Both the position numbers and the translations under genes were made by a program. A stretch of DNA of 17,788 nucleotides from a virus (Duplodnaviria > Heunggongvirae > Uroviricota > Caudoviricetes). Of the stretch, positions 1,940 to 17,788 are shown piece after piece. The stretch is taken from the IMG/VR virus record IMGVR_UViG_2870464427_000002; one strand, given 5' to 3'. A model generated the notes under the pieces. That model searched no databases. It worked only from the letters and a program-made list of their open reading frames with translations, and was not told where the DNA came from. The stretch's first letter is position 1; each line of letters opens with the position of its first letter.

Positions 1940-3516
1940 GCTAGCCTCACAATATAGTTGAATGCGATATTTTTGACGGTGTTTTCGGTGCTGCCGGTAT
2001 TATTAATGGTTAGGGAGTGGTTATGGGAACCAAGTGCAATTGAATGCGAATGGGTGCCGAGCGCAACAGTGTGCGAATGGGAACCAATTGTAACACTATG
2101 AACGTGTGATGGAACATTAATTGCCAAAGATGATCCGGTACCAGGGCCATATGATGTCCAGTCGCCTTGGCCCTCTGGTGAAGATGTCCCTGTTCTTACT
2201 GTTGCAGTTGCCGAGCCTGAGCCAGATGAACTTGTTGTTTTATTTCCATGGTTAAATGATGATGCAGTTTTAGTCCCCAAGTCTGTGAGGGGTGTGGTTT
2301 TCGTCCCTAAATCAGTACTCGAAATACTGCCCGTATGGTTATGTGATTTAACTCCATCCAGTTCAGTAGATAATATAGCGCGCCCACTGGATGGTTTTCC
2401 TTTAATTATCCATCCGCGCATATCAGGAATAACACCAGATGGATATGCAATTGCCAGTTTGGGATAGGAGGTTTTATTAAATGTCTGACCTGTCATCAGA
2501 GCGTAGCCTGAAGGTACAGAATCAGATGGCCAGGGAATAGGCATCCCAACAGGACAGCTTTCCGCAGCAATAGCCTTATCCATCGCTGCCTTAACCGCGT
2601 TCGGCGTCGCAGCTTCCGTCGTACTGGTGCTGTTGGTCGCATTATTAAGTTTCACGACCCCTTTTTGTGTCAGCGTACCGTCGGGGATACCTGTTATTTG
2701 CCCCCAGGCATGGGTATGGCTGGACGGCGCCGCAGCAATAGCCTTGTCCATCGCTGCTTTAACCGCACTTGGCGTTGCAGCTTCCGTTGTACTGGTGCTA
2801 TTTGTTGTGTTGTTAAGTTTAACGACTCCTTTCTGCGTCAGTGTACCGTCAGGGATACCAGTAATCTGATTCCAGGCATGAGTATGACTGGTTGCGGCTT
2901 TGCTATTTGCCAGGTCATATGCCGTTTTTACCGCTTTTGGCGTGGCTGCTTTAGTCTCATCATCGCTATTAGTTGCATTACTGAGCTGCGTAAAACCTTT
3001 TTGTGTCAGCGTCGCATCAGGATGATTTCGTGATTGCTGATGTGTTTTCAACGCGTCATCGACATATTCCCTGGTTGCCACAACGACTGAAGGGTCGATC
3101 AAAAGCGTCACCGCGTCTGCATTGGTGACTTCCATGACCGCGCGTATAACGATTTGCTTACTGGCCCCCGCAGGTAATCGTGGCTTATAGGTTTCCGGGA
3201 ATTTACCAATAGCGACCAGCGTGCCGTCGGTATCCAGTAACCCAACTTCGCGTACATACCAGCCTCCGACTTGTTCGGGAATAATCGCTTCTGCGATAAC
3301 CCAGGCCGGATTATCTGGCGCAATTTTTAATGTATTGAGCTGACCACGCCAGACCTCATGGACTACTTTGGTCTGACTTTCTGTCGGTTCGATATATTTA
3401 CCATTACCGTCGCCAACTACCATAGTTTGCAGACGGATCTGTTTTTGCTCGGCCAGTGCTGAGGCAATTTTGGCTTTGCCTGCAGCAGTTAATATTGTAA
3501 AAAATTCACTTGCCAT
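1936..3516 (-). CDS. tail fiber protein (P2 gpH / Mu S-like)
   Basis: Start set at ATG 3514-3516 ([16 protein letters not shown]...), 5 bp after the gpI stop; the longer track ORF overlaps gpI and is rejected. Conserved baseplate-attachment N-domain, three tandem fibre repeats (TLTQKG...ATNS...AATP.AVK.A.D.A), Gly/Ser/Thr-rich C-terminus with repeated S-H-x-H motifs. Confidence 0.85.
2518..3012 (-). repeat. tandem coding repeats, unit about 171 bp (57 aa), three copies, inside the tail fiber gene
   Basis: Near-identical DNA blocks, e.g. 2641-2700 versus 2812-2870. Protein repeats [49 protein letters not shown]. Confidence 0.7.
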
Positions 3517-3518
3517 TA

Positions 3519-4250
3519 TTACTCCGGATATACAGACATAATTTCGGTGCTCCAGTATCCTGTGCCGACCTTCATCGGTTGGGATTGTGTAAGGCGATCG
3601 GGTTGATAAGGTAGTAGTTGGATATATTCCTCCACACAATAACCCGTCGCTAAAAATATTCCTGATGACTGGCTGAGGCTTTCTGCAACAGGAGGCAATA
3701 CTGTAATGACTTCCCCTCCTTGCATGGCGCTGCCAATAACTGGTATTGGGCTTCGATTAATAAGCCAAATAACAATGCTTTCCAGCTTTGAACGAACATT
3801 TTTATATTCATGAATTAATGTGATAAGTGCATTGAATTCATCTTCATTTAATCCTTTTTCCTCTAGTGTAATATTTACCTTAAAAAAATAAGCCCTTCCC
3901 CCATATTCAAACCATTCTGAAATAGTTCCGGGTAAGGAAAGTATTTCCAGCACTCGCCGTACCGCCCAAATTGTTCCTTTATATTTATGCAGTTCAATGG
4001 CTTGTTTAATTAACTCGCGTTTCTCCCGCTCATCGGTGGTAAATAACCAACCTTCCAGCCCCTGAACGTGAAATTGTTCTGCAAGGGCTGGTAATGCCGA
4101 AGCATCAACCAGGTCGACCAGATAAACCATCAACGCCGTCAGATCGAGTTGGGCAAAACGCTCGGCGGCGATGTTTGCCAGAATCGAAAAACGCTCATCG
4201 CTGGCAAGCGGCGGCGGTGGCAGCAATTTATCCATCGCTGACTCCGGCAA
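3519..4250 (-). CDS. tail/baseplate protein, P2 gpI family
   Basis: 243 aa. LLPPPP...ER...LD...VD..DASALP.LA..FHV.G...W......[21 protein letters not shown] matches the gpI family pattern. Start may be the internal Met at 4235; overlaps the gpJ stop. Confidence 0.8.
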
Positions 4251-5343
4251 TCGTGACGTCTATTGCAGTGCATTCCGCCCATTCATGCGCCTGCAAAATA
4301 CGTTTTGTAGGCATATTCAGCGCAACGTCATAGACGCCATCGACCTGTAACACTTTGATTATCTGGTTTGGCACAATGTCCTGCCCCAGATGTTTCTGCC
4401 GCTGTTGCGTCCAGAGGCTAATCGCTTTACGCGCCGCAGCCAGCGTTGTCTCCTGATCGGCGGTGGTAAACAGCATTAGCTGCGCACGGATCTCATACGG
4501 CACTCGAAGAGCGCATTTCGCACTCACTTTGTCGGTCAGCGGTCGTTTTTTCTCCTTGCTGACTTCTTGTTCAATCTGCGCCAGCAACTCCGTGCCGGGT
4601 AGACCATTCAGGGTTAGCGGGTAGATCTCCACGCAGCCTTCTGGCAATCCCTCGTCCGGCCCCAGTACTGCAACGTCAATAATCGACTGGCTAACAGAAA
4701 GCGTATGAAAGCGGTAGGCACCATAGCTGCCCGCATTACTAAAGCTTTCTGGTGCCAGTTGGATACGCTGGCGCAATGCGTCATCGCTCTCTTCACCGCA
4801 GCCGCCCGTTGACGCAGTCAGGTTGGTTACGTTGATGTCATAATGACCAATCCTGTCGACCAGTGCGCTAATTTGTGCAGGCTGCCAGCCGTTACCCTGT
4901 TCACCTGCTGCGAGGCTGGTGGCAGGAACGGCGATATGCAAACTCCTGGCCGGAAGCAGAACATCTTCATCGGTGGCGAACATCACGCTATCAGAGGCAC
5001 TGGCCCGCGTCCCCTGGGGAATCAGGATATTGCCGGGATACGCACTAACGACCGAAAACTGCAACGTCGTTTTTGCAGGCTGCGCAGGCAAACGGTGAAC
5101 TCCCACCAACTCCCCTAAATAATCCAGCATTGGCGCGCGGGAATACGCGACCAGGTTTTGTTTCGCCGCTTCCTGAATGGCGATGCGTACAAGGTTTTCA
5201 CGATAGGCAAACAGGTCGATGAGCAACCGCTCAGCCTGTGCCGGATAGAGTTTTTTACCACTGGCATCTTCGTATTGCGCAATCATCTCACTGGTAATTT
5301 GCGCAGGATCGCGGTCAATAAAATTGGGTTCGGCTATCGCCAT
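4228..5343 (-). CDS. baseplate wedge protein, gpJ family
   Basis: 371 aa. Segments GSYGAYRFHTLSVSQSIIDVAV, LGQDIVPNQIIKVLQVDGVYDV and C-terminal [14 protein letters not shown] align with P2 gpJ as I recall it. Confidence 0.85.
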   Translation of the reverse strand: MAIAEPNFIDRDPAQITSEMIAQYEDASGKKLYPAQAERLLIDLFAYRENLVRIAIQEAAKQNLVAYSRAPMLDYLGELVGVHRLPAQPAKTTLQFSVVSAYPGNILIPQGTRASASDSVMFATDEDVLLPARSLHIAVPATSLAAGEQGNGWQPAQISALVDRIGHYDINVTNLTASTGGCGEESDDALRQRIQLAPESFSNAGSYGAYRFHTLSVSQSIIDVAVLGPDEGLPEGCVEIYPLTLNGLPGTELLAQIEQEVSKEKKRPLTDKVSAKCALRVPYEIRAQLMLFTTADQETTLAAARKAISLWTQQRQKHLGQDIVPNQIIKVLQVDGVYDVALNMPTKRILQAHEWAECTAIDVTIAGVSDG

Positions 5344-5693
5344 AACACCTCCGTTGAGTTGATAACGCCGTCAGCGGCGCGCCATTGCACACGTAACGTC
5401 AGATGTTCGCCGTCGATTACTGGTGTCACCTTCAGCAACCGACAGCGCGGTTCCCACTGGCGGATGGCTTCCACCGACTCCCGTACCACATGCGGGATAG
5501 CCCGCTCGATGGGGTAATCGATGTAGTGCCACAAGTTGCTGCCAAACAGCGGTCTGTGGGGATCACTGCCGCGCGGTGTACGCAGAATGATGTGTATTGC
5601 CTGGTGAATATCATCCAGCCCGCAGACGTATTCTTCAGGCCGCTGCAAGGCCGGTTGCCAGTGCAGCGTTGAGGGGCGTGTTTTTGTGTTCAT
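5334..5693 (-). CDS. baseplate protein, gpW/gp25 family
   Basis: 119 aa. Core I...I.ILRTPRGS and W.Y...P.........V.EAIR.WEPR match the GPW/gp25 family. Confidence 0.8.
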   Translation of the reverse strand: MNTKTRPSTLHWQPALQRPEEYVCGLDDIHQAIHIILRTPRGSDPHRPLFGSNLWHYIDYPIERAIPHVVRESVEAIRQWEPRCRLLKVTPVIDGEHLTLRVQWRAADGVINSTEVLWR

Positions 5694-5766
5694 GAGGGTA
5701 TTTTCGCCCTGAACGGGCTGTGGAGATATTAAAGCGATTTAGAAAACTGATTGATTAAAAAGAGAA

Positions 5767-5786
5767 AACCCGCCATCAGGCGGGTT
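5767..5786 (-). terminator. hairpin with downstream U-tract on the minus strand, between gpV and gpW
   Basis: AACCCGCC-ATCA-GGCGGGTT perfect 8-bp stem. On the minus-strand transcript it is followed by TTCTCTTTTT. Sits in the 98-bp gap after the gpV stop (5792-5794). Confidence 0.4.
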
Positions 5787-5791
5787 AAAAG

Positions 5792-6493
5792 TCAGTGTGA
5801 ATGGTGGTTGGAGTTGCCACCGCTGTCCTGCAATGCGCCGCTGGCCTGAACGTTGCCGATCACGTTGACATTGCCGGTTATCGTGGCTGCGTTACCGATG
5901 CCTCCACTTCCTGCCATCCCGCCAAGCCAGGTGAGTTTTTTCATTACCGTGACGTTGCCAGTAAAGGTGCTCATGGGCGCATCTACCGTCACTGCTGCTG
6001 CTTTAACCTCGACCTTAGTGGCGTCGATGCTGACATCGGTCGCTTTAACATCGACGGTATCGGAAGTCACGGTGACGTGTTGGGCTTTAATCTCAACGTT
6101 GGGCGATGTCAGGCGGGTGCTGTCGATAACCTCAATCACGATTTTCTCGATACCGCCGTTAATCGTCAGCTGGTGCGTGCTGCGGTCATATTCAAACGCT
6201 GCGCCATCAGAAAACTGGACGTAACGTTTGTCGCGCGAGGCTACAGGCGCGGTGTCAACCGTAGAATAAACGGCACCCAGCACCACGCCATCTTCACCGT
6301 TATCGTCCAGCAGAACTTCCACTTGCTCGCCCATATCCGGTAGCCAGTAGTCTTTATTGTCCTGGGAATTGCGTTGAAGTACCGCAAGCCAGTTGCTCTT
6401 CAGATTGTCACACTCTGGTAGAGTGACCCGTACCCGAACACTGGTTTCGTCAATATCGCTGATAATCCCCGTTTGACGGGTTACTCCTTTCAT
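5792..6493 (-). CDS. baseplate central spike, gpV family
   Basis: 233 aa. N-terminal OB-fold-like region typical of gpV spikes, a repetitive beta-rich middle (VTVTSDTVDVKATDVSIDATKVEVKAAAVTVDA) and a His-rich C-terminal tip (GGNSNHHSH). Confidence 0.8.
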   Translation of the reverse strand: MKGVTRQTGIISDIDETSVRVRVTLPECDNLKSNWLAVLQRNSQDNKDYWLPDMGEQVEVLLDDNGEDGVVLGAVYSTVDTAPVASRDKRYVQFSDGAAFEYDRSTHQLTINGGIEKIVIEVIDSTRLTSPNVEIKAQHVTVTSDTVDVKATDVSIDATKVEVKAAAVTVDAPMSTFTGNVTVMKKLTWLGGMAGSGGIGNAATITGNVNVIGNVQASGALQDSGGNSNHHSH

Positions 6494-6502
6494 ATTTCCT
6501 CC

Positions 6503-7543
6503 TTACTGGCTGGTCGCTGGCCCGCGTGACACGTCGATTTCAGTGGTATAGCCGCTGCGCACAAAACTGTGAGTAGATTTATCAATCAGCCACTGACCGG
6601 AAATCACGCCAAAATCGGTCAGTTCAATTTTATTGCCCGCCGTCAGTTCCGGGCAGCCCATCATTGTGAGCGTTCCGGTTTGCTGATATTCGTTGTGGCT
6701 GTCGAGTGCAGCGTTAGCCTTTGCCTGTGCTGCGCCAACGTCCGTCGCCCGACTGTTCAGTTTTAGCGTGTCGGCACTAGTGCCGACTCCACGGACAGAT
6801 GGTTTTTGCTGGCTGTTGTGAGTGTAGATAACCAGTTCTTTTTTCTTACTATTTTGATGCTGTACGGTGGCGTTCTTGTAGATCCGGTTAATGGTGTCTT
6901 TGAAGGTAAAATGAGAAACCTCTTTGCGATCGATCTTTTTCACAGGCGTCAGGCAGCGCAGCGTGGGTAAATGTGAAAAAATCAGCTCTTTTGTCGTCAC
7001 TTTTACGGCATAACCATATTCACTGGCCAGACGTTTGAGAAATCCGACATCGGTTTCACCATACTGCGTTACCCGGTCGATGGTGAGCGACTCGATTTTG
7101 CCCACCAGTTTCAGACCGTGCGTTTGGGCAATACGGCTGGCGATCGCCGAAAGCGTCGTTTCTTCAAAGCCCTGGCTGTTACGGGTGCGCAGCGCCTGAT
7201 TGACGGAAGTGGCGATGCCATCAATATTTACCGTGGAAGGTGGCGCTGAAATATCAATTTTATCAATAATATACTGGCCACAATCGAGCAGCTTTTCCCC
7301 CTGATAACCTATATGCAGCGCCAGCGTATCGCCTTTGCCGGGATACCACTCTTTTATCCAGCGTCCATCTGTGTCATCCAGTGTAATTGCGATGGTATCC
7401 GACTCGTTTTTGATGCTGTCGTGGTAACTGATGCTGGTGACATAGGGTGTGATGTCATAAGTGATATCTTTATGCCCATACCAGAGGGTAAAAATGGGCG
7501 TGAGTGTGGCAAAGACGCCACCAGTTACGCTCATCTCAGCCAT
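6503..7543 (-). CDS. baseplate hub protein, P2 gpD (late control D) family
   Basis: 346 aa. Size, position between gpX and gpV, and overall composition fit the gpD/gp27-like hub family; call rests on synteny and general resemblance. Confidence 0.75.
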   Translation of the reverse strand: MAEMSVTGGVFATLTPIFTLWYGHKDITYDITPYVTSISYHDSIKNESDTIAITLDDTDGRWIKEWYPGKGDTLALHIGYQGEKLLDCGQYIIDKIDISAPPSTVNIDGIATSVNQALRTRNSQGFEETTLSAIASRIAQTHGLKLVGKIESLTIDRVTQYGETDVGFLKRLASEYGYAVKVTTKELIFSHLPTLRCLTPVKKIDRKEVSHFTFKDTINRIYKNATVQHQNSKKKELVIYTHNSQQKPSVRGVGTSADTLKLNSRATDVGAAQAKANAALDSHNEYQQTGTLTMMGCPELTAGNKIELTDFGVISGQWLIDKSTHSFVRSGYTTEIDVSRGPATSQ

Positions 7544-7740
7544 GGTGGGATCTCCGATAAGGTTTTATTAACGGAAATGACCGGAATAATGAGCTGAATA
7601 CCGGAAGGCAGTACCGGGTAAATGGCTACATGTGGATTGGCGGCGATTATGCGTTCATAAGCCAGCGCATCACCGTAGTAATGCCATGCCAGGTTATCCC
7701 AGCGTTCGCCATCGGTGGTGATATGTTCAAGGTATCGCAT
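7531..7740 (-). CDS. tail protein X (P2 gpX-like, LysM-like fold)
   Basis: 69 aa. W..L...YYG.......I..ANP..A....LP.G....IP pattern as in P2 gpX. Overlaps the gpD start. Confidence 0.7.
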   Translation of the reverse strand: MRYLEHITTDGERWDNLAWHYYGDALAYERIIAANPHVAIYPVLPSGIQLIIPVISVNKTLSEIPPWLR

Positions 7741-8693
7741 TACCAGCTCCTGGTAATGGTTACGGCAGCAAGCTGGCTCACTGCGGGAGTGGTTTGTTGT
7801 ACCGTTGTACGTGCCTGCTCAACCAACGACGTGGCTTTATCGAACGTCGCTTCGGCGATGTCGCTGGTAATGTCGTCGAAAAGCGCCTGAGCATGGTCAA
7901 CCAGCGTACTGGCGTCATTGGCGCAGTCCCGGATACCTGGCATGTTACCCAGTAAAGCTTTAATCTGCGCCGACAACGCTTTTGGTAGGCCTGCCAGCGT
8001 TTGCAGATCCATTGGCTGTTTAAACAGGGTTTCGATGGCGTCGATTGTCTTTTTCAATGACGTAATTATCTTTTCACACTTTTCTTTTAACGCTTTGGCC
8101 TCTTTAATCATTGCTTTCACTTTTGCCACCGTTTTTTTAATATCTTCAATGGATTGTGTCAGTTCATCCAGCATCTCTTTGGCCTTACGCATACCTTCTT
8201 CAATGGCGTTTAATATCTGATCAAACCAGGACTCCACCTTGTCGGGAAAATCGCTCGCCTTTTCCTCGATGTTGGGCTCCTGGGTGGTAATCGCCGGAGG
8301 TAAAAGTGGATTTTTAGGATCGCCGGTGTACTCCTGGAGCGACATCGTTCCGTTTTGGGCAATCACATTGCCCCAGGGATCGGTGTGCTGGTGGGTGGCG
8401 GTTAGCTCCGTAATCACAAACCAGCCGCGATAATCGCCATTGCCAAATACCAGTGCCATCGCCTTGTGAGCAAGCATGGCTTCACGCAGTCGGTTCAGCT
8501 CTGTTGTGGGCTGGCAAAACTGGCTGTGCAGGGAAAATTCCAGCGCCAGCATATCCAGCTTATCGCCAATAAACTGCACGCCGGGTTTGCCTTCTATACG
8601 GGCATGTGTGGCGTAATCCACGCCCATTGTGCTTTTAAAGCCGTCCCAGAATGTGACAACCTTAAATTCAATCTCTCCTAAAACGGCATACAT
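7740..8693 (-). CDS. gpU-like tail protein with a long C-terminal coiled-coil extension
   Basis: 317 aa. The first ~120 aa (MYAVLGEIEFKV...GKPGVQFIG...L.LEF.L.........L..L...AM....MALVFGNGDYRGWFVITEL) resemble P2 gpU. The remaining ~190 aa are Lys/Glu/Ala-rich heptad-like sequence. Start overlaps the tape measure stop by 1 nt. Confidence 0.65.
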   Translation of the reverse strand: MYAVLGEIEFKVVTFWDGFKSTMGVDYATHARIEGKPGVQFIGDKLDMLALEFSLHSQFCQPTTELNRLREAMLAHKAMALVFGNGDYRGWFVITELTATHQHTDPWGNVIAQNGTMSLQEYTGDPKNPLLPPAITTQEPNIEEKASDFPDKVESWFDQILNAIEEGMRKAKEMLDELTQSIEDIKKTVAKVKAMIKEAKALKEKCEKIITSLKKTIDAIETLFKQPMDLQTLAGLPKALSAQIKALLGNMPGIRDCANDASTLVDHAQALFDDITSDIAEATFDKATSLVEQARTTVQQTTPAVSQLAAVTITRSW

Positions 8694-11068
8694 TAGGCAT
8701 ACCCCCGGCGCTGCTGCTGCGCCATTACATCGTTAATCATTCTTTCCAGTTCGCGTTTACTCATCGTCAACACGTTCTGAATCTCTTTAGTGGTGTTTTG
8801 TCCGTTACCCTGCACGGTAATTTGTGGCGAAAAATTCACCTGAACTTTTCCTGAGGAACGGGAAGGTAGCGTCGCCGCTTTGGTTACGGATTTACCAGGT
8901 AAAGAGGCAGATACGGGTTTGGCGGCTGTATTTTTTGCCGCTGGCGCCGATGACGGCGTAGCCGTTTTGCCGGATGGCGCGAGTTGTTTGCCCACCGGCG
9001 GCGTTAAAATCGCACCGGCAACGCCTGGAACAACGGTCGCGGGGGAGACGGATGCGGTATTAGTCGTGCTTGTAATAGCTGTAGCCGATCCTTCTGTACT
9101 AATACCCATCGTGGTTTTTAGCCAGTCTGGGATGGCGTTTTTTACCTGATCAATAATGCCTTTCAGAGCGGGGAAGGCATTCATTATGCCGTCAACCAGA
9201 CTGCCCAGAAGATTGCTGCCGAACTCGCTAAAACTTGCAGGCATCTCGACACCAAACCAATTCATCACACTGGAAAAGGCGCTATAGAACAACTCCAGCG
9301 GTGACCAGTCGAGAATCAACCGACAAATTCCTGCAATGCCGCCGTCAAAGGCCGTGGTGATACGTTGCCAGATGGTCGAAAAGAACCTGGAGATAGGCTC
9401 CCAGTTGCGATAAATCAGATAAGCAGCGCCCGCAATCGCAGTGATGACCAGACCAATGGGATTCATCAGTAGCACCCGGCCTAGTGAGAGAACGGTCCGA
9501 CCAACCAGTTTCAATGTTCCAATCAGGCCACGACCAAGCAGTTGCGTTAGCCATTTTGCGCCGCCACCCAATGACTTAACCGCTGATAGCATCTTACTTG
9601 CCCCGCCTGTGAGCGCCAGACTTGCCTTGACTTTCAGGAAGATATCGACCAGACGAATAAACGGCGAGGTGATGAGGTTCGCGCCCAGCTTTAAAACATT
9701 CAGCGCACCGTTAAACAGCCAAATCGCCCCGACGATTTTCGCGATGTTTTGCACCAGTGTCGGGTGCTCACGTAGCCAGGCGCTGAACTGACGAATAACC
9801 GGCGTAAGGCTTTGTGCCAGCTCGCCAATCAGCGGCATTAATTGCAAGCCAATGCTGAGCCATAAATCATTTAACGCCAGCTGTAACGCTTTAGTCTGTT
9901 CAATGGGCGAGGCCATTTGCGCAGAAAAGTCGGCATCAATCAGATTCTTGCTGGTGGCTTGCATGGCAGAGGCTTTTAACTGGCGATATTCCTCCATATT
10001 CGCCAGCATAGGGGCCAGGAATTCCACTGTTTGCGCATCGCCGAACATTTCCCCCAGATTAAACTGCGTCACCATCGATTGCAGCGCATTGCTGCGGGCA
10101 GATAAATCTTCGATCTGCATGGTGCGTTTGAAGGTGTCGAGGATCGCCGGATTCATCTTCTCAAGCTGCATTTGCACGATATGAGTCATGGCTTCGCTAA
10201 CACCCATACCGTTTTGCTGATGCTCAAGCAGAGAGCCTTGCAGATCAACGCCCTGGCTGACGAACCAGTAATCGGTTTTTTTCGAAAAGGTGGTTTGCAG
10301 AAAGTGGTCGAAATTCTCCGCCGCCGCACTGGCGCTGGCCCCGTTTTTCATGGCGATCTGCATGGTGGCGGTCAGTTCAGCCATACCTTCCAGACCCTGA
10401 GCGCCGGTTTTACCTGCAAATTTCTCTATCCACTGCGTTTGTTCAGCAATGGCAGGCCCACCGCTTTTGCTAATGCCGTACATCATGTTTTGCGCGGCGT
10501 GGAAATTTTCCGGGGCAATATTCAGTCGATCATGGGTTGCGAGCGCGGCATTCGCCCATGTTTCAGCACTTTCGCGCGTGGCGGTGGCAGCTTTGGCGAT
10601 CTCCGGCATATAACGGTTGAGATCCTGTATCGACGACAAATTGCCTTCGATCAGCGTTTGGGCTGCGTTCTGTAAGGTGGTCTGCTGCTGGTTAAAATCC
10701 ATGCTCCAGTCGCGCAGATTAAGGCTGAGCGTCTCGCGGGTTGTAGCATTCATCCCACCTTTGGTCGCCATATTGACCATGTTGTCCTGAAACTCATACG
10801 GCAACTTCCAGTCGGGGGCTTCAACATTGAATACTTTGCTAAATTGCCCGGCAAATGTTTGGGTTTTCTCCATCAGATTAGCGCGGCTGCGGCTATTTTC
10901 CTCCAGGCGGAGAGCGGAATCGGCAAGCTGCTGCGTTAGTTTGATAACTGTCGCCTGCTGAGTAGAGAGAGTTAACAATGTTCTGGCGTTGAGTGAGCCG
11001 TAACGGGCTATTGCCTGCGTCAACGTCTCATTACGCGCCTGAAGCTGGGTAATAATATCGTTGGCCAA
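8693..11068 (-). CDS. tail tape measure protein
   Basis: 791 aa. Alpha-helical N-terminal region, central hydrophobic Gly-rich segments (LIGTLKLVGRTVLSLGRVLLMNPIGLVITAIAGAAYLIY), Ser/Thr/Pro-rich C-terminal region. Lies between the chaperone and baseplate genes. The track start is a TTG codon, so the exact start is uncertain. Confidence 0.85.
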   Translation of the reverse strand: MANDIITQLQARNETLTQAIARYGSLNARTLLTLSTQQATVIKLTQQLADSALRLEENSRSRANLMEKTQTFAGQFSKVFNVEAPDWKLPYEFQDNMVNMATKGGMNATTRETLSLNLRDWSMDFNQQQTTLQNAAQTLIEGNLSSIQDLNRYMPEIAKAATATRESAETWANAALATHDRLNIAPENFHAAQNMMYGISKSGGPAIAEQTQWIEKFAGKTGAQGLEGMAELTATMQIAMKNGASASAAAENFDHFLQTTFSKKTDYWFVSQGVDLQGSLLEHQQNGMGVSEAMTHIVQMQLEKMNPAILDTFKRTMQIEDLSARSNALQSMVTQFNLGEMFGDAQTVEFLAPMLANMEEYRQLKASAMQATSKNLIDADFSAQMASPIEQTKALQLALNDLWLSIGLQLMPLIGELAQSLTPVIRQFSAWLREHPTLVQNIAKIVGAIWLFNGALNVLKLGANLITSPFIRLVDIFLKVKASLALTGGASKMLSAVKSLGGGAKWLTQLLGRGLIGTLKLVGRTVLSLGRVLLMNPIGLVITAIAGAAYLIYRNWEPISRFFSTIWQRITTAFDGGIAGICRLILDWSPLELFYSAFSSVMNWFGVEMPASFSEFGSNLLGSLVDGIMNAFPALKGIIDQVKNAIPDWLKTTMGISTEGSATAITSTTNTASVSPATVVPGVAGAILTPPVGKQLAPSGKTATPSSAPAAKNTAAKPVSASLPGKSVTKAATLPSRSSGKVQVNFSPQITVQGNGQNTTKEIQNVLTMSKRELERMINDVMAQQQRRGYA

Positions 11069-11257
11069 AATTGTTTCTCTTTAAATATTGATAATGGCCC
11101 GCTGGTTATTTTTCTAAAAAAAGGGGCAGGGAAGAAATAAACCTGACGGGCTTGGGAAACTCGCAGACATCAGGTCTGCGAGTCATATTCGATTTTTATT
11201 TGGGCGCTGGCTTCATCCAGCCAGTTGCTAAAGTCATCGACGGTAAGGGCGTCTATC

Positions 11258-11575
11258 TCACTGGGTGGAAAGCGAAACCATCTCGCCAGTAACGCCATCG
11301 CTTGCCATAACAGTGGCGGATTCTGTAGCCACGCTAAGCATGGATTGAAATCGTTTCTGCAATGCCTGGTAATCCAGCAAATCCATTTCAGCTAAATCTT
11401 CTGGCACCAGTCCGGTCATTGCCGCCATTAGCGGTTCATCCCACTCTTCAGGTTTTTCGCTGATCCGGCGCGCGTTGCGCATATCTTTTACTTTCAGGCG
11501 ACGTAATTGCAGAGTGTTAATTACGTCTCCCGCCGCTGAAGTAAACGGGAACTGTAAGATATAATGTTCTTTCAT
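11258..11575 (-). CDS. tail assembly chaperone, P2 gpE family
   Basis: 105 aa, acidic, in the conserved position between tube and tape measure. An alternative frame stays open past its stop (see findings). Confidence 0.75.
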   Translation of the reverse strand: MKEHYILQFPFTSAAGDVINTLQLRRLKVKDMRNARRISEKPEEWDEPLMAAMTGLVPEDLAEMDLLDYQALQKRFQSMLSVATESATVMASDGVTGEMVSLSTQ

Positions 11576-11625
11576 TTTGTGTCCTTATTTATTTTGCAAA
11601 GTTCGGGGCCGTAGCCCCGAATAAC

Positions 11626-12150
11626 TTAGCCACCGATGTTATTGCGATAGGTACTTAATTGATCCACACCATTAACCCGGAAAATATTGGCCATATAATC
11701 AAGTTCAAGCAGCGTTTCACCATCAACTACTTGTTTAATATAAGTGCAACCAAAGGCGCTGCTGAATTCCGGGTTTTCATTCTGTTTAAATGTGCCCAGT
11801 GGATTCTTTTTAAACATCACGGTTAAATGTGTCACTAGCGCTAATTGATTCGCTTTCCCCTGGGAGTTATAGCAATCAATACTGGAGCGGCACTGTAATG
11901 CAACCGCCTGCCACGGGTTTGCCGTTTTACGCATTACGTCCTGATAGAAGGAGTTCCATTTAATTTCGCCCTCCAGTTTATCGAAACCCGCCGGGAGTTC
12001 GATTTTACCCACCATGCCCAGTGCTTTATGCTCCTGCATAATTAAACTGACATCCGGCAATTTAATTTCGGTTGCACGACCTAAAAGGTTATTACCATCG
12101 AGATAAATATTGGCGTTGGTAATACGGTTAATTTGAATTTTTCCAGCCAT
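11626..12150 (-). CDS. tail tube protein (P2 FII family)
   Basis: 174 aa. C-terminal ...VNGVDQLSTYRNNIGG closely matches the P2 FII C-terminus (VNGVD.L...R.NIG). Start overlaps the sheath stop by 1 nt. Confidence 0.85.
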   Translation of the reverse strand: MAGKIQINRITNANIYLDGNNLLGRATEIKLPDVSLIMQEHKALGMVGKIELPAGFDKLEGEIKWNSFYQDVMRKTANPWQAVALQCRSSIDCYNSQGKANQLALVTHLTVMFKKNPLGTFKQNENPEFSSAFGCTYIKQVVDGETLLELDYMANIFRVNGVDQLSTYRNNIGG

Positions 12151-13573
12151 TAGCTATTGCTCTCCAGAGAGACTAAATATTCAGAAGTAATTTCAGTTTC
12201 AAACGTCAGACGTTCCAGCGGCGGCGGCGGGGTGAATTTATAGCTCAGCAATAAATGCCCAGCGCTGAGTTCAGTCGGTGAATTTCGCGCCGGATCGTAC
12301 CAGCATTCAAAGCCAAGCAGTGCGCCGTCGGCAATCAGCTTACGGCCCCAGGTATTTACCGATTCGGTCAGGGCATCAATCAGCGCCTGATTAATCGGCA
12401 TATCAATATACTGCTGACTGAAATAACGGATTGACTCATTAATTACATCGCCTGTCCGGCGGACGTTTTCAAAGTTACGCATATGGGTCACGGTAGGCCA
12501 CGCTGCAGTGCGGTTGCCCCACAAGCGCAGACCAGAGCCGTAACTATTGAAAATAGTGGTAATGCCGTTTTCGTTTAGCTGATTCACTTCGCTTTGTGGA
12601 TCATCAATCATTGCGGAAAGCGAACGTTCAATACCGGTAATACCCTGAATTTCTTGGTTTGAGTTGCTCCACCAGAAACCTTTTTCGAGGTCTACTTTGG
12701 CACGTAGCCCGGCAGCGCGCGAAGAGAGCGGTTCGAGAACTTCCTGGTTAGTGATGCCATCGTAAACTTTGACGTGTGGGTAACATAAACGCGCACGATC
12801 AGAGCTGGTGTTGAAGTTGATAGCCCCTTGCGAACCGCGTCCTGCCAATACCTGCTGGAATGTCGTCCCAATCGGGGCATCAATGTAGGTAATCGCACCA
12901 AGTTTTTCCGCTTGTGCAATCAGCTCTGTAGTTACTGATTTTTGCGTACAGAACACGGGAGCAAGCAGGATTTTGGCGTAGAAACCATACAGGTTATAGG
13001 TGTCCTGTAGCAGTTTCATCCCCGTGCGGTCGCCTGCGGTATTTACGGTACCGATAATATCGGCTGCGGTGACCTTTGTAGGGTCGCACCAGGAATAATA
13101 GGCACAAACTTTCGCACCAGGAGGAATGTCGGCTCCTTTACGGGTAATTATGCCTGTTTGTTCATCTACGCTAAATGCTGCGGTGTTAAAGGTTGATGAA
13201 TTTGATGAAGAGGGCTTTAGTACCACGTTACGCACATTGCGGTGAGCGAGCTTCGCCTGGTTGTTAGCATCAAAAGTGATACTCTCATTGCTGATGTTGG
13301 AGCCATGTTTTGCCGGATCCAGCACGTTAATCACCACCACCGTACCGGCACCGTGGTCATAAATTGCCTTCAGTGCCTGTGGGATCGTAAAGTTAGCCTG
13401 AGTCGAGCCAAACTGCGCAGCATCGCTTTCAGAAAGGCATAATGTTGGTTTATTTACCGGACCGCAGGGGCTGTACCGATTAAAGCGATGACGGCGGATT
13501 TTACCGCTTTAACCGGACGCGGGCCGGTTTCAATTTCAATAGTTTCTACACCGTGCAGATAATTAGCTGCCAT
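12150..13573 (-). pseudogene. contractile tail sheath (P2 FI / Mu L family) interrupted by an apparent 1-nt frameshift near 13457-13468
   Basis: From ATG 13573 one frame encodes MAANYLHGVETIEIETGPRPVKAVKSAVIALIGTAPAVR then stops (TAA 13454-13456). The adjacent frame is open from 13508 and continues PVNKPTLCLSESDAAQFG...VVVINV... through the 396-aa track ORF, whose C-terminus (LRLWGNRTAAWPT...YKFTPPPPLERLTFE) is sheath-like. One extra G in mRNA GCGGTCCGG would join the two frames. Confidence 0.7.
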
Positions 13574-13760
13574 GTACAATTTCCTCTACGTTATTTTGTT
13601 CTTCCTGAGTGATGACAGGAGTCAGATGATTGCGGGCAATCATGGTCATGACCCACTCGTTGTCTTCTGGCAGATCAATTTCACTGTTCGGCCACAATAA
13701 GATTTCTTGTCCATCGGCAAGGGTGACGCCGCTTGCTGGGCCGTTGTAGATGTATTTCAT
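13563..13760 (-). CDS. small hypothetical protein upstream of sheath
   Basis: 65-aa ORF overlapping both neighbours. Its position recalls the small gene preceding the sheath gene in Mu-like tail modules. No motif recognised. Confidence 0.45.
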   Translation of the reverse strand: MKYIYNGPASGVTLADGQEILLWPNSEIDLPEDNEWVMTMIARNHLTPVITQEEQNNVEEIVHGS

Positions 13761-14212
13761 TCAGTTTCCTCGTAGTTAACTTCCGTAAGCAGGGGAAGAT
13801 CCGTGCTTTCCTGTTCAGCGATAAATAGCGAGCTGGTCGCCATTTCCAGGATGTAGCGGCAGAAACCGCCGCTCTCACCCGTATTAATTTCTTTTTCAAG
13901 CCAAAGAAGACGATCGCAATCAGGAAGCTGAAGGCCACCCAATGCGCTGCGTATGTGATCAAGTGCGTTTAATGCATCACAATTTTTGCCAACAATAACG
14001 GTGGCGGTTAAGCGGAGTATTTGCTGTTGCACGATGGCATTACTGCTTTCGGGCGTAGCAAAGACAGAACCGCTATAATTAATAATCACTGCAACTCGTT
14101 GTGTCTGTGGAATATATTTCTGGGCATCCTTAGATGAAATAAATATATCCATTTCGGAGTTGTGTTCACGTAATCTGGTCACAACAGAATTCATTACAGA
14201 TAAAATTTCCAT
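13757..14212 (-). CDS. hypothetical tail-associated protein (possible tail completion protein)
   Basis: 151-aa ORF with an AAGG ribosome-binding site upstream of ATG 14210-14212; first gene after the terminator. Function inferred from position only. Confidence 0.5.
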   Translation of the reverse strand: MEILSVMNSVVTRLREHNSEMDIFISSKDAQKYIPQTQRVAVIINYSGSVFATPESSNAIVQQQILRLTATVIVGKNCDALNALDHIRSALGGLQLPDCDRLLWLEKEINTGESGGFCRYILEMATSSLFIAEQESTDLPLLTEVNYEETE

Positions 14213-14317
14213 ATAGGCTGTACCTTAATTACCGCTCACTTCGTTATCGTTGAAATGTATTCTGAAGCAGCGAAGGTGAAGAATCTTTTAATGTGATTTA
14301 GAGAAAAAATTGAATGG

Positions 14318-14343
14318 TTAAAAAAATCCCCACCCTTACATAA
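14318..14343. terminator. strong bidirectional intrinsic terminator between the lysis cassette and the tail genes
   Basis: Perfect 11-bp stem TCCCCACCCTT / AAGGGTGGGGA with loop ACAT, flanked by A7 (14311-14317) and T5 (14344-14348). On the minus strand the hairpin is followed by a U7 tract. Confidence 0.6.
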
Positions 14344-14356
14344 GGGTGGGGATTTT

Positions 14357-14671
14357 TCAATAACTGCCACGTTGTAACAGCTCGATTTTGCTATATAAGG
14401 CATCCAGCTTCGCTTCTAATACTGCTTGCCCACGAAGATAATCTTCTCTGCGGACATAATGCAGCGGAAGCTCGGCACGAAATTCGAGAAATTCTCTTTC
14501 CAGTTTCGACCAACTTGTTTCTGATTCCCGGCGCGCGTTTTCCAGAGATTCAAAACGCTCATTAAGTCGTTTTTCAATTTGTGCTAACAGCAGTTTTCCG
14601 GCAGCAAACATTAATCCAACGAAGGAAAGCATAAGGGAGATCACTTCCCAAAAATCGATACTGAGTTTCAT
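14357..14671 (-). CDS. membrane-anchored coiled-coil protein, possible lysis accessory (spanin-like)
   Basis: 104 aa. N-terminal transmembrane helix (VISLMLSFVGLMFAAGKLLL) followed by a charged helical region. Last gene of the lysis block. Confidence 0.45.
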   Translation of the reverse strand: MKLSIDFWEVISLMLSFVGLMFAAGKLLLAQIEKRLNERFESLENARRESETSWSKLEREFLEFRAELPLHYVRREDYLRGQAVLEAKLDALYSKIELLQRGSY

Positions 14672-14683
14672 CGGCCCCTCTGA

Positions 14684-15289
14684 TTAATGAAGACAGCTTG
14701 CCTGTCCCCAGAGTAAATAGCGGGCGGCATGTTGATAGAGGATCATCTTTGGATAGCGACGATTTTCTCGCCAGTTCGTGGCGCTGCGCCCGGCGTTGAC
14801 TTGCTCAACATGACCAAACCAGCTAGTGGCATCTAACCCTTTGGATGCAGCCAGTTTTTTATCCCGGTTAACCCACCCCTGACCGCCGTTATAGGCGCTT
14901 AGGGTAAACGCCATACGCTGACAATCATTTTTCGCAGAGATGTTTTTCCACAAATGCTGGTCATATTGCACCAGCGCGCGAATCGCCCAGGTTGGGTTAT
15001 ACGGTTTGTTTTCACGCAATTGTGGATACAACTGGCTTATCCATGTCGCTGTAGCAGGCATAAATTGCGCCATACCTTGTGCGCCAACGGGGGAACGTAC
15101 CATTGGCTGCCAGGCGGACTCCTGGTGTAATTGCCCGGCAAAGTCGGCCACTGGGGCATTCAGCCCCCAGACTTCTCGAGCTGTACGAATTAGTTCGTTT
15201 CGCCATGCCAGAGAGGCTCTCGGCGGTTCAGAGGCGTTGAGTGGGAAAAGAACGAAAATAATCATAGACGCGATATATTTCAGCCACAT
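14684..15289 (-). CDS. lytic transglycosylase (SLT/GH23 domain) with N-terminal signal sequence; putative endolysin
   Basis: Start set at ATG 15287-15289 (MWLKYIASMIIFVLFPLNA...), 2 bp after the holin-like stop; the track's longer N-terminal extension is rejected. SLT motifs present: HQESAWQP, GAQGMAQFMPATA, AYNGG. Confidence 0.8.
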   Translation of the reverse strand: MWLKYIASMIIFVLFPLNASEPPRASLAWRNELIRTAREVWGLNAPVADFAGQLHQESAWQPMVRSPVGAQGMAQFMPATATWISQLYPQLRENKPYNPTWAIRALVQYDQHLWKNISAKNDCQRMAFTLSAYNGGQGWVNRDKKLAASKGLDATSWFGHVEQVNAGRSATNWRENRRYPKMILYQHAARYLLWGQASCLH

Positions 15290-15291
15290 CA

Positions 15292-15579
15292 CTATAGCCC
15301 TAACGCGACGGAAAGGCAGACGGCAGCAACGATGATAGCCCGGCGAATCATTGCCGCCGCGCAGCAACGCGGTTCCTTCCAGGGGCAAAAAGAGTCAGGC
15401 CGTGCCCAGGGGAACAAACTGCGATCGAGCCAGTATCCCAGCACCGCGGAAAGCGAAACCAGGCTTAGTTTATAAATGACGACCGGGATTTGTGCTGAAG
15501 AGGTCCAGCCGATCACGACAAACAGCGCGACGGAAGCGACCAGCCAACCGGAAAGCCGGGGAAGAGTGACTTTTTTCAT
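15292..15579 (-). CDS. small membrane protein, putative holin
   Basis: 95 aa with two to three predicted transmembrane segments. AGGAG ribosome-binding site 8 nt upstream of ATG 15577-15579. Immediately precedes the transglycosylase. Confidence 0.5.
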   Translation of the reverse strand: MKKVTLPRLSGWLVASVALFVVIGWTSSAQIPVVIYKLSLVSLSAVLGYWLDRSLFPWARPDSFCPWKEPRCCAAAMIRRAIIVAAVCLSVALGL

Positions 15580-15875
15580 ACGGTATCTCCTGATAAGTGA
15601 GCGTTTAGTGTCGCCAGAACCCGCCAGTGAAGAATGAAAAAAGCTTTAATAAATAAGTTTAAAAAATAGATTCTCTATAAATGAACATGCCCGCTAATAA
15701 ATCCACTCAGCAATTAAAGAGCAAAAGGTGACCTCGCGAATAAGCGCGTCATTATGCAGGGAAAAGATGATGGTGAATCGTAGGAATAGTCAGTAGTTAT
15801 TTGATTTTTAAAGTTTGTTTAAGAAAGTCAGCGACTGTGAGGGAAACGATCTTTTTACACTACAAGTAAAAATAA

Positions 15876-15889
15876 TACTGTATGTGTAT
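15876..15889. promoter_or_regulatory. left half of a LexA (SOS) box split by the insertion (TACTGT + duplicated spacer)
   Basis: Removing the insertion and one duplication copy gives TACTGTATGTGTATACAGTA, a perfect 20-bp palindrome with the CTGT-N8-ACAG architecture (18/20 to TACTGTATATATATACAGTA). Confidence 0.45.
15882..15889. repeat. target-site duplication, left copy (ATGTGTAT)
   Basis: Identical 8-mer directly abutting the left inverted repeat; second copy at 17206-17213. 8 bp is the duplication size expected for ISL3-family elements. Confidence 0.75.
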
Positions 15890-17205
15890 GGGTCTTCCCT
15901 TGTTGTGGTGGCTGAAGGCATGATAATGGTGTATTTAATCGCCAGAGGTCACCGCCATGGACGAAAAGTCCCTCTACGCTCATATTCTCAACCTGTCCGA
16001 TCCGTGGCAGGTAAAGTCCCTTTCTCTCGATGAAAATGCCGGTTCTGTTACTGTCACTATTGAGATCGCTGAAAACACCCGGCTAGCCTGTCCGACCTGC
16101 GGTAAATCCTGTTCTGTTCACGATCACCGTCATCGTAAATGGCGCCATCTTGATACCTGCCAGTTCACCACTATTGTTGAAGCCGATGTTCCACGAATTA
16201 TGTGTCCGGAGCATGGCTGCCTGACGTTGCCTGTTCCGTGGGCTGGCCCCGGAAGCCGGTATACGTTGCTATTCGAATCGTTCGTTCTCTCATGGCTGAA
16301 AATCAGCACCGTTGATGCTGTCAGGAAGCAACTTAAGCTCAGTTGGAATGCGGTTGACGGCATTATGACCCGGGCAGTTAAGCGAGGTCTTGCCCGGATA
16401 AAAAAGCCATTATCCGCCCGTCATATGAATGTGGATGAGGTCGCCTTTAAAAAAGGACATCGTTACATAACGGTGATCTCCGATCGCGATGGTCGGGCGC
16501 TGGCCTTAACGGATGATCGCGGCACAGAGAGTCTTGCCGGCTATCTTCGCACGCTCACTGATGGGCAGTTGCTGGCTATCAAAACGCTCTCAATGGACAT
16601 GAACGCGGGCTATATAAGAGCAGCGCGTATCCACTTACCCAGTGCGGTTGAGAAAATCGCCTTTGACCGCTTCCATGTGGCGAAGCAACTGGGCGAGGTA
16701 GTTGATAAAACCCGTCAGAATGAACATCCGCACCTCCCTGTTGAAAGCCGACACCAGGCAAAAGGAACCCGCTTCCTGTGGCAGTACAGCGATAAGTGGA
16801 TGACCGAATCCCGGCAGGAAAAGCTGATGTGGCTGCGTGCACAGATGAAGCTGACGAGCCAGTGCTGGGCGCTGAAAGAGCTGGCAAAGGATATCTGGAA
16901 CAGGCCATGGAGCGAGGAAAGACGGAGTGACTGGCAGAGATGGTTGGCGCTGGCGGCTAACAGTGACGTTCCCATGATGAAAAATGCCGCGAAAACGATA
17001 GGAAAAAGGCTGTACGGGATCCTGAATGCGATGCGACACAGTGTCTCAAACGGAAATGCGGAGGCACTTAACAGCAAGATCAGGCTGCTGAGGATAAAAG
17101 CCAGGGGATACCGAAACCGGGAGCGCTTTAAACTGGGGGTGATGTTCCACTACGGAAAGCTGAATATGGCGTTCTGAGCCTTCCCACCATGATCGGGGAA
17201 GACCC
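15890..17205 (+). mobile_element. ISL3-family insertion sequence, 1316 bp, apparently intact
   Basis: Terminal inverted repeats GGGTCTTCCC (15890-15899) and GGGAAGACCC (17196-17205), with further inner matches (TGGTGG). Flanked by 8-bp direct repeats ATGTGTAT. Carries a single transposase ORF. Confidence 0.8.
15957..17177 (+). CDS. ISL3-family transposase
   Basis: 406 aa. N-terminal zinc-ribbon CPTCGKSCSVHDHRHRKWRHLD and the MNVDEVAFKKGHRYITVISD block are characteristic of ISL3 transposases. Confidence 0.85.
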   Translation: MDEKSLYAHILNLSDPWQVKSLSLDENAGSVTVTIEIAENTRLACPTCGKSCSVHDHRHRKWRHLDTCQFTTIVEADVPRIMCPEHGCLTLPVPWAGPGSRYTLLFESFVLSWLKISTVDAVRKQLKLSWNAVDGIMTRAVKRGLARIKKPLSARHMNVDEVAFKKGHRYITVISDRDGRALALTDDRGTESLAGYLRTLTDGQLLAIKTLSMDMNAGYIRAARIHLPSAVEKIAFDRFHVAKQLGEVVDKTRQNEHPHLPVESRHQAKGTRFLWQYSDKWMTESRQEKLMWLRAQMKLTSQCWALKELAKDIWNRPWSEERRSDWQRWLALAANSDVPMMKNAAKTIGKRLYGILNAMRHSVSNGNAEALNSKIRLLRIKARGYRNRERFKLGVMFHYGKLNMAF

Positions 17206-17213
17206 ATGTGTAT
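17206..17213. repeat. target-site duplication, right copy (ATGTGTAT)
   Basis: Identical 8-mer directly abutting the right inverted repeat. Confidence 0.75.
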
Positions 17214-17219
17214 ACAGTA
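17206..17219. promoter_or_regulatory. right half of the split LexA (SOS) box (duplicated spacer + ACAGTA)
   Basis: See left half. This half lies 21 bp upstream of a TTGACA hexamer. Confidence 0.45.
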
Positions 17220-17240
17220 TCGTGTAAAATGATACACCTG

Positions 17241-17270
17241 TTGACAAGAAACATAACGCAAACAATATAT
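17241..17270 (+). promoter_or_regulatory. candidate sigma70 promoter upstream of the Mor-family gene
   Basis: TTGACA (17241-17246), 17-18 nt spacer, then AATATAT (17264-17270). Followed by about 170 bp of AT-rich leader. Confidence 0.3.
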
Positions 17271-17440
17271 CTATTTCATGAATTTATGGCGTTCATTAAT
17301 ATTAAAAATTTATATTTTTGTTAATTGTTTATTTGTTTGTTGAATGTATTGAGTAGCAGTAATGACAACTGCTTAGCGTATATCCGTGGTTTTACACGCA
17401 TCGGGTCTTATTCAGGATGCAAGATATATGGAGATGAAAA

Positions 17441-17788
17441 ATGATACGAAAATCAAAAGAGATGGCCCGGACACCGGAGATCATTAACGACCTGGCTTTT
17501 CATGCATCGCAAGTTCTGATTGAAAGCATCAATCTCGACAGTTCATCGGCAGAAAATGTGGGCTTTGCCATTGCCGACCGAATGATGCGTAACTGGGGCG
17601 GACAAAGCATTTATTTCCCTAAGGGGATCTCCGGACGAGCATCGGAGCGTGACTACCAAATCTATAGCGAGTGCGATGGGCGCAACTACGCCGAATTAGC
17701 GAAGAAATATAATCTGACGCTGCAATGGATTTATAAGATTGTGAAACGCGTACATGCGGAAAAGCAACAGCGCCGCAGTAATTCGTAA
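17441..17788 (+). CDS. Mor/C-family transcriptional activator (phage Mu middle/late activator family)
   Basis: 115 aa. GGAG 7 nt upstream of the ATG. WGGQSIYFPKG...RD..I......G.NY.ELAKKYNLTLQWIYKIVKR aligns with Mu Mor (GGGQVYIPRG...RDLRIWNDFNGRNVSELTTRYGVTFNTVYKAIRR), including the C-terminal helix-turn-helix. Stop codon is the last three bases of the window. Confidence 0.75.
   Translation: MIRKSKEMARTPEIINDLAFHASQVLIESINLDSSSAENVGFAIADRMMRNWGGQSIYFPKGISGRASERDYQIYSECDGRNYAELAKKYNLTLQWIYKIVKRVHAEKQQRRSNS

Follow-up and report, generated by a model that had tools for sequence, protein, structure and literature searches.

Among the described systems closest to the one considered here is the activator Mor of phage Mu with its promoter Pm, in which two 5-bp inverted repeats flank a G/C-rich hexamer to form a 16-bp element centered at −43.5; Pm has a −10 hexamer but no −35 hexamer, and an A/T-rich site for the alpha subunit lies directly upstream of the element (PMC4390567, PMC4287176). 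On the Mu genome, with the numbering fitted to the bases named in the paper, Pm reads AGTAA-agccgg-TTAAT, 22 nucleotides (nt), and TATCCT. Here, we analyze a 17,788-nt stretch of tailed-virus DNA (IMG/VR record IMGVR_UViG_2870464427_000002; the window, below), which matches an island of tail and lysis genes in the Escherichia coli chromosome and ends with a gene, mor, for a Mor/C-family activator. Upstream of mor, the insertion sequence (IS) ISKox3 splits what otherwise reads as an operator for the host repressor LexA. This insertion is target directed, and the intact operator suggests a two-step switch in which LexA would control mor and Mor would activate the tail and lysis promoters. The promoter layout predicted for the island is that of Pm (16-bp 5-6-5 dyad with TAA/TTA cores, 22 nt, a −10 hexamer, no −35, and a T/A-rich stretch upstream). 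Compared with Mu, however, the island has one activator instead of a two-tier Mor-then-C cascade; its mor appears to have its own promoter and a host LexA operator, whereas mor in Mu ends a repressor-controlled early operon; and the island activator would drive a headless tail cluster.

The closest phage relative of the mor product is gp01 of BcepMu (49% identity). BcepMu resembles the island in having only one Mor/C homologue, which in BcepMu is the last gene at an end of the genome, and the two have a Gp37-family gene, an SLT lysin, and P2-like tail genes in common. In BcepMu and in a metagenomic Mu-like prophage, mor comes last in the early operon, after gemA, at the genome end; the island, in contrast, has lost the early, head, and transposition genes, and a LexA box appears to have taken over. 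Loss of the early and head region would leave mor at the island edge, back-to-back with the lysis genes. The original prediction took this divergent layout as a departure from Mu; the divergence is there, but no redesign need be invoked, given that a BcepMu-like mor is also the last gene at a genome end.

In Pectobacterium, DNA damage reportedly works through RecA, RdgA, and the Mor-like RdgB to turn on pectin lyase, the Mu-type tailocin carotovoricin, and lysis. A phage homologue is annotated "RdgB," and the island model would follow the same two-step logic. There, however, RdgA is a dedicated cleavable repressor, whereas no such repressor lies beside the island activator (annotation gives no repressor or S24 peptidase gene in the island or beside mor), and host LexA appears to act directly. 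The R and F pyocins of Pseudomonas aeruginosa are governed by PrtR, a dedicated cI-like repressor relieved by damage, and by one activator, PrtN, which is not known to be related to Mor and serves the tail and lysis operons; by analogy, the island model shares this repressor-activator-operon logic. As in our model, host LexA directly represses one small phage switch gene in coliphage 186 (tum) and in the Gifsy prophages (PMC3121763), and this gene in turn sets off lytic development; the products there are antirepressors and not a transcription activator. The island circuit thus looks like a variant of the Mu Mor/C, RdgA/RdgB, and PrtR/PrtN designs, and its new part would be host LexA sitting directly on a Mor-type activator. 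If this is true, a tailocin conserved among enterobacteria is governed by a single host operator, a single Mor-type activator, and three or four promoters that look alike, with no dedicated repressor; such a compact switch would be easy to test and engineer, and the reach of the Mor/C family would extend past phage Mu.

The mor gene and its LexA box

The family assignment made in the original prediction holds well. The product matches the Pfam Mor profile (PF08765) over residues 10 to 112 with E=7e-38 and 129.3 bits (cutoff, 24.9), and its helix-turn-helix region (residues 46 to 109) matches Mu Mor (1RR7/9L0Y; E=5e-8); Mu C (9L0X) is matched with E=7e-5. NCBIfam profiles gave nothing above cutoff for Mor, the holin, or the small open reading frames. 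The protein accession is identical in the window and in strains with an uninterrupted box. As had also been stated, mor is divergent from the holin, SLT lysin, and tail genes, which all lie on the minus strand. The island ends with mor, and the gene beyond it, lysC, is convergent; mor therefore cannot control rightward genes, which disposes of a regulatory role to the right of the window, raised earlier as an alternative.

As it stands, the window has no CTGT-N8-ACAG anywhere. Removal of ISKox3 in silico gives TACTGTATGTGTATACAGTA, with 2 mismatches to the 20-bp LexA consensus TACTGTATATATATACAGTA; by comparison, the recA box has 4 and the sulA box has 3. The island is carried by 196 of 5426 complete E. 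coli genomes (about 4%), 186 of which have the uninterrupted spacer between holin and mor, and in 2016C-3878 and others this allele is 100% identical to the window on either side of the insertion. By chance, a 16-mer box would be expected about 0.008 times in the 537-bp spacer. Eight loci, which represent six lineages, have retained the box with 1 to 3 mismatches and 221 to 291 nt upstream of mor: E. coli (two alleles), Salmonella, Dryocola, Phytobacter, and Superficieibacter (two genomes and a near-identical metagenomic contig). Across these genera, the spacer outside the box has mostly diverged past alignment, yet 3 to 4 nt to the right of the box there is always TGTAAAAT or TGTAAAGT, and to the left of it, in all eight loci, an A-tract. 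Taken together, these observations bear out the earlier claim of an interrupted LexA box upstream of mor, and we infer that LexA binds the box when it is intact. In Pasteurellaceae Mu-like prophages whose Mor is 45% identical, mor follows gemA and is not preceded by a LexA box; it therefore seems that being controlled by LexA directly is peculiar to the tailocin lineage. At a further locus, L028 (positions 4440 to 5000; its Mor cluster is named Enterobacter hormaechei by one source), the box has decayed (CAAT...GCAG), and TATAAAAT is kept.

Where would such an operator act? Without the insertion, the box would reach from about −37 to −18 of a rightward candidate promoter, P_R, across its −35 and spacer region. 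The TAAAAT that would serve as its −10 hexamer lies 3 to 4 nt past the box in all eight box-bearing loci and is kept in L028, and the A-tract, A-rich in every lineage, may be its proximal UP subsite. This conserved TAAAAT abutting the box is the likelier mor promoter. A hybrid promoter with a −35 hexamer supplied by the right end of ISKox3 was considered for the interrupted allele and discarded, as there is no TTGACA-like hexamer 16 to 18 nt from TAAAAT.

The leader of mor, about 200 nt long, has conserved blocks in four lineages, GCACC and, about 60 nt later, GGTGCA before the ribosome-binding site; in E. coli, a local hairpin (AGCAGT...ACTGCT, positions 17352 to 17385) stands in their place. 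This hints at a leader structure. On the other side of the spacer, a small hairpin in the holin leader was set aside as an intrinsic terminator because it is not conserved.

Candidate Mor-dependent promoters and the proposed switch

The original prediction pointed to two regions, 15580-15889 and 14213-14356, as places to look for Mor/C-type promoters, and both hold a Pm-like layout; a third example lies before gpW. We call these P_lys, P_tail, and P_bp (Table 1). All three have a 5-6-5 dyad, exactly 22 nt, an nAnAnT hexamer, and no −35, a layout that matches Mu Pm. The composite P_tail/P_bp motif has 2 matches in the window compared with 0.03 in shuffles, and both of them stand right behind a terminator and right before a gene. 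P_tail is conserved in all lineages compared and P_bp in Salmonella, and the arms of P_lys and their 22-nt spacing are conserved in all eight loci; the P_lys feature as a whole (15607..15663) has an extra upstream half-site, TTTAA. An earlier reading, in which the holin-proximal block was a TTTAA-N9-TTAAA dyad centered at −54 and AATAC served P_tail as its −10, was abandoned in favor of the Pm-identical register (22 nt to nAnAAT), which fits all three promoters better. In L028, the left arms of P_tail and P_lys are both ACTAA. The predicted start of P_bp (5691-5743, minus strand) is the A of the gpW ATG (5693), with no Shine-Dalgarno sequence and with the same spacing in Salmonella, which suggests that the gpW mRNA may be leaderless.

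The spacer between holin and mor holds one more such layout, block 2, which faces mor. It is found in five of six comparable lineages (among them E. coli, Salmonella, Phytobacter, and L028), is weak in Dryocola, and is absent in Superficieibacter. It is possible, but not likely, that block 2 is a Mor-dependent autoregulatory promoter. As a site for integration host factor it was rejected, since it lacks the TTR portion of the consensus.

The two-step circuit is the best-supported model for these parts, and we think it probable, if by no great distance. We imagine that in the intact allele, host LexA on its near-consensus operator would block a weak promoter (−10 TAAAAT, A-tract, no −35). DNA damage would remove LexA, allowing mor to be transcribed through its 200-nt leader, and Mor would then bind 16-bp dyads (nnTAA-N6-TTAAw) near −43.5 and recruit RNA polymerase to three promoters that lack a −35 hexamer. 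P_lys would serve the holin, the lysin, and the membrane protein; P_tail would serve Gp37, sheath, tube, tape measure, and onward; and P_bp would serve gpW, J, I, and the fiber. Block 2, as a fourth site, may give positive feedback on mor.

Expression data from Salmonella touch on both steps. After nalidixic acid treatment of S. Typhimurium, STM14_5073 was up 4.08-fold by RNA-seq (PMC8072944, Dataset S1); this gene is the mor orthologue (348 bp, plus strand). In favor of the circuit there are thus the LexA box, this increase, and the Mor-type promoters, while the claim that the tail and lysis genes would follow did not fare as well: STM14_5042 to STM14_5072 (tail, lysis, and holin) are absent from both the up and the down lists of that data set. 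With mor up and the holin gene unlisted, the rightward promoter is favored; no increase in the tail and lysis genes accompanied that in mor, and the second step is therefore argued from promoter anatomy.

Other points also weigh against the model. About 1100 genes, roughly one fifth, were called up with nalidixic acid, so a 4-fold increase is modest evidence, and the authors' SOS regulon list does not contain STM14_5073 (PMC8072944). The Salmonella box is confirmed in S. Infantis only, whereas the RNA-seq strain is S. Typhimurium. P_R has neither a −35 hexamer nor a TGn extension. The half-sites of the Mor-type promoters are AT-rich motifs within AT-rich DNA, and the right arm of P_lys deviates (TTTCA). 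Mor binding and activation at P_tail, P_bp, and P_lys are putative. Finally, the conserved TGTAAAAT doubles as the −35 hexamer (TTTACA) of a leftward candidate promoter, P_L, whose −10 hexamer falls inside the box. The box overlaps both candidates, P_R at its −35 and spacer region and P_L at its −10, and the sequence fits a rightward and a leftward reading alike, leaving the direction of the LexA-controlled promoter ambiguous.

LexA might then act mainly on P_L, in which case damage would give a transcript toward the holin, or a leader or antisense RNA, with mor controlled in some other way or with divergent promoters sharing the operator. P_L (TTTACA-16-TACAGT; 9/12) is the only place in the intact spacer that matches the sigma-70 consensus. 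E. coli, Salmonella, Phytobacter, and Superficieibacter all keep it, and the box over its −10 and spacer would be in the classical position for a repressor. We nevertheless consider this unlikely. In Salmonella, the holin orthologue is uninduced while mor rises; the −10 hexamer is AACAGT in Dryocola; and L028 keeps TAAAAT while TTTACA has become TTTATA. The 290 nt downstream of P_L contain nothing conserved or coding, and Rfam finds no known RNA family anywhere in the spacer at E<=1. Induction of a lysis operon without tails would also make little biological sense. A promoter for mor at TTGACA (17241-17246), proposed in the original prediction, with LexA repressing from upstream of the −35, has in its favor a perfect −35 hexamer in the window allele. 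Its −10 partners are poor or misspaced, however (AATATA with a 17-nt and TATATC with a 19-nt spacing), the promoter scanner was silent there, and other genera lack the hexamer, for which the second E. coli allele has TTGATA. The box would moreover end 21 bp upstream of the −35, from where LexA would not occlude polymerase. We reject this site as the mor promoter, and the corresponding reading has very little to recommend it.

A different view is that the whole element is a decaying prophage remnant, dead in this strain, in which mor, the box, and the dyads are functionless relics. In some Salmonella, the tail cluster and box are gone and mor is left as an orphan; a gtrABC operon sits inside a Salmonella tail cluster; the box has decayed in L028; the window has both the operator insertion and a frameshifted sheath gene; and the Salmonella tail genes were uninduced. 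Set against this, the tail and lysis reading frames are all intact in the uninterrupted E. coli strains, and the operator, terminators, dyads, and exact spacings have been kept across genera while the spacer diverged freely, which indicates purifying selection on the regulatory parts. This view seems to us improbable, somewhat more so than the leftward promoter, and the two-step circuit is the reading that we carry forward.

ISKox3 and ISEc53 insertions at LexA boxes

The element in the window is a member of the ISL3 family, with a DDE transposase (Pfam DDE_Tnp_ISL3, helix-turn-helix, and Zn-ribbon domains), terminal inverted repeats GGGTCTTCCC, and an 8-bp target duplication, ATGTGTAT, at 15882-89 and 17206-13. 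The insertion splits the operator and P_L, strips away the sequence upstream of the mor −10, and cuts block 2 off from mor; P_lys, P_tail, and P_bp are untouched by it and are identical to those of uninterrupted strains. In the window strain, loss of the operator center would abolish LexA binding and uncouple the switch from the SOS response. No terminator is predicted between the transposase stop codon and mor by the terminator scan, so that low read-through into mor is possible; mor is most likely silent or fed only by transposase read-through.

The earlier suggestion that the insertion may have uncoupled mor agrees with the destroyed operator, but the insertion is not a random hit: it is target directed. 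ISKox3 is at the same position, with the duplication ATATGTAT, in a second strain that carries the alternative spacer allele. In a third strain, the mor box is taken by ISEc53 with a clbS-like passenger gene, in the opposite orientation and with the duplication ATGTGCAT. All told, the mor box is occupied in 10 of the 196 island-bearing E. coli genomes (2 by ISKox3 and 8 by the ISEc53 type, including IAI39 and CE10), and these ten are exactly the genomes without an intact allele. Three other chromosomal copies of ISKox3, all that were inspected, are in the LexA box of sbmC and read TACTGT TTTTATAT / IS / TTTTATAT ACAGTA.

The same pattern is seen well beyond these strains. When metagenomes were scanned for the right end of the element, 82 distinct flanks came to light. 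Of these, 66 have ACAG at +9 to +12, and ACAG at any other offset occurs in at most one flank; the base profile of these flanks is that of the right half of the LexA consensus. Among 14 complete copies, removal of the element regains a perfect CTGT-N8-ACAG in 12 and falls one base short of it in two (loci behind this survey, L034-L038 and L039-L158). What is duplicated on insertion is the central 8 bp of the LexA box. Genes just past the junctions include those for UmuD-like S24 peptidases, SbmC/GyrI, DinI, and DinD. Other metagenomic copies of the element measure 1761 to 4013 bp, and the element group thus moves cargo into SOS operators. In E. coli AF14 (L034, 3383-3901), the ISEc53-type element in the mor box carries a passenger gene of the ClbS/DfsB family, the colibactin self-protection family.

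We are inclined to think, at slightly better than even chances, that ISKox3/ISEc53 elements pick LexA operators, either through CTGT-(AT-rich 8 bp)-ACAG or through bound LexA, insert on the dyad axis, and systematically unplug SOS genes (umuD-like, sbmC, dinI, dinD, and the tailocin switch). A literature search, judged largely by title, found no description of LexA-operator targeting by ISKox3, ISEc53, or the ISL3 family. An experimental paper on ISKox3, in which capsule genes were under selection, reports 8-bp duplications in these genes that are AT-rich, and is silent on LexA boxes; given these capsule-gene insertions, the preference for LexA boxes is strong but not absolute. Defined, palindromic host motifs entered with fixed geometry are familiar from IS1397 and ISKpn1 (repetitive extragenic palindromic sequences) and from Tn7 (attTn7), although the motif for ISKox3 is the operator of a global repressor. 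If our reading is correct, this choice of target would be one so far undescribed among insertion sequences, the interrupted SOS box of the island is one case of a general rewiring, and a natural example of operator-directed transposition is at hand. ISKox3 is common on NDM-type resistance plasmids. Predictable changes in SOS traits would follow, affecting the mutagenic polymerases of resistance plasmids, sbmC, and the self-lysis or tailocin switch. An element homing to LexA operators is the most surprising result here, and its targeting may matter more than the tailocin switch itself.

The island and its variants

Bases 15500-17788 of the window match the E. coli EC0585 chromosome with 100% identity, and the whole window has a single-base difference from the EC0585 record, in which the island is bordered by yjbD on one side and lysC on the other. 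The annotated minus-strand genes comprise a lysis part (holin, SLT transglycosylase, and a small membrane protein) and a tail part (Gp37, sheath, tube, tape measure, gpU/X/D/V/W/J/I, fiber, and fiber accessory genes); the plus strand has the ISKox3 transposase gene and the gene annotated "Mor transcription activator family protein." Neither annotation nor Pfam finds head, replication, or integration genes in the island. A full complement of sheath, tube, baseplate, and fiber genes and a lysis cassette, without such genes, is the gene content expected of an R-type tailocin, and the island, judged by its genes, is most likely a carotovoricin-like (Mu/BcepMu-type) contractile tailocin.

Table 1. 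Positions of the features described in the text, numbered along the window
Feature	Position	Strand	Description
Tail structural genes	1936..14212	-	Gp37 to fiber (annotation)
P_bp (candidate)	5743-5700	-	TCTAA-atcgct-TTAAT, 22 nt, GAAAAT, no −35; right after gpV terminator, before gpW
Intrinsic terminator 3′ of gpV	5767..5786	-	terminator scan
P_tail (candidate)	14302-14259	-	TCTAA-atcaca-TTAAA, 22 nt, CAGAAT, no −35; right after strong lysis-cassette terminator
Intrinsic terminator 3′ of lysis cassette	14320..14357	-	sequence; equivalent hairpins in other genera
Lysis cassette	14357..15579	-	holin 15292-15579, SLT transglycosylase 14684-15289, 104-residue membrane protein 14357-14671 (Pfam Holin_2-3, SLT; annotation)
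P_lys (candidate)	15650-15607	-	ATTAA-agcttt-TTTCA, 22 nt, GACACT, no −35; upstream of holin gene
Block 2	15807..15850	+	TTTAA-agtttg-TTTAA, 22 nt, AACGAT; 25 nt upstream of box
A-tract GTAAAAATAA	15866..15875	+	directly upstream of box
Left LexA half-site TACTGT and left duplication copy	15876..15889	.	sequence
ISKox3 (ISL3 family), 1316 bp	15890..17205	+	transposase gene 15957-17177, codirectional with mor
Right duplication copy ATGTGTAT and right LexA half-site ACAGTA	17206..17219	.	sequence
P_L −35 TTTACA (candidate)	17223..17228	-	−10 TACAGT, at 15882-15877, now 1.3 kb off
P_R −10 TAAAAT (candidate)	17225..17230	+	
TTGACA promoter of the original prediction (rejected)	17241..17271	+	poor −10 options; scanner silent; not conserved
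mor, 115-residue Mor/C-family activator	17441..17788	+	last island gene (Pfam, PDB matches)

In Salmonella LT2, the island has as its orthologue the phage remnant STM4198-STM4219. The same island adjoins lysC in Salmonella, in Phytobacter, in a metagenomic enterobacterium, and at L028, and Dryocola and Superficieibacter have close mor homologues with the same holin-mor spacer. A literature search found no publication on this island, and papers naming STM4213 or STM4219 hold no regulatory information. A report of a "tailocin" in sequence type 131 (PMC9205054) was considered as a description of it and rejected, as it concerns a different, P2-like prophage.

Several variants of the island were noted in passing. 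In Salmonella Infantis (L021, 6287-9613), a gtrABC O-antigen glucosylation operon lies between gpV and gpW, upstream of the conserved gpW promoter candidate, with a sequence of about 50 nt repeated at both of its ends. In two Stanley-type Salmonella loci (L032 and L033), the tail/lysis cluster, the LexA box, and the distal leader are all lost, and an intact orphan mor beside lysC retains about 145 nt of its leader. In the window itself, the sheath gene (minus strand) has a 1-nt deletion in a G5 run at about position 13466, relative to RefSeq EC0585 and 2016C-3878, which shifts the frame past codon 36 and leads to a stop three codons on; this may reflect a sequencing error in the homopolymer, or the tailocin may really be inactivated. 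The fiber gene (1936-3516, minus strand; L001, 6769-8016) is given as two pseudogene fragments in the Prokaryotic Genome Annotation Pipeline (PGAP) annotation of EC0585. Its 526-codon frame is open and 100% identical to a gene annotated as intact in 2016C-3878, and we therefore treat the PGAP label as an annotation inconsistency and the fiber gene as intact.

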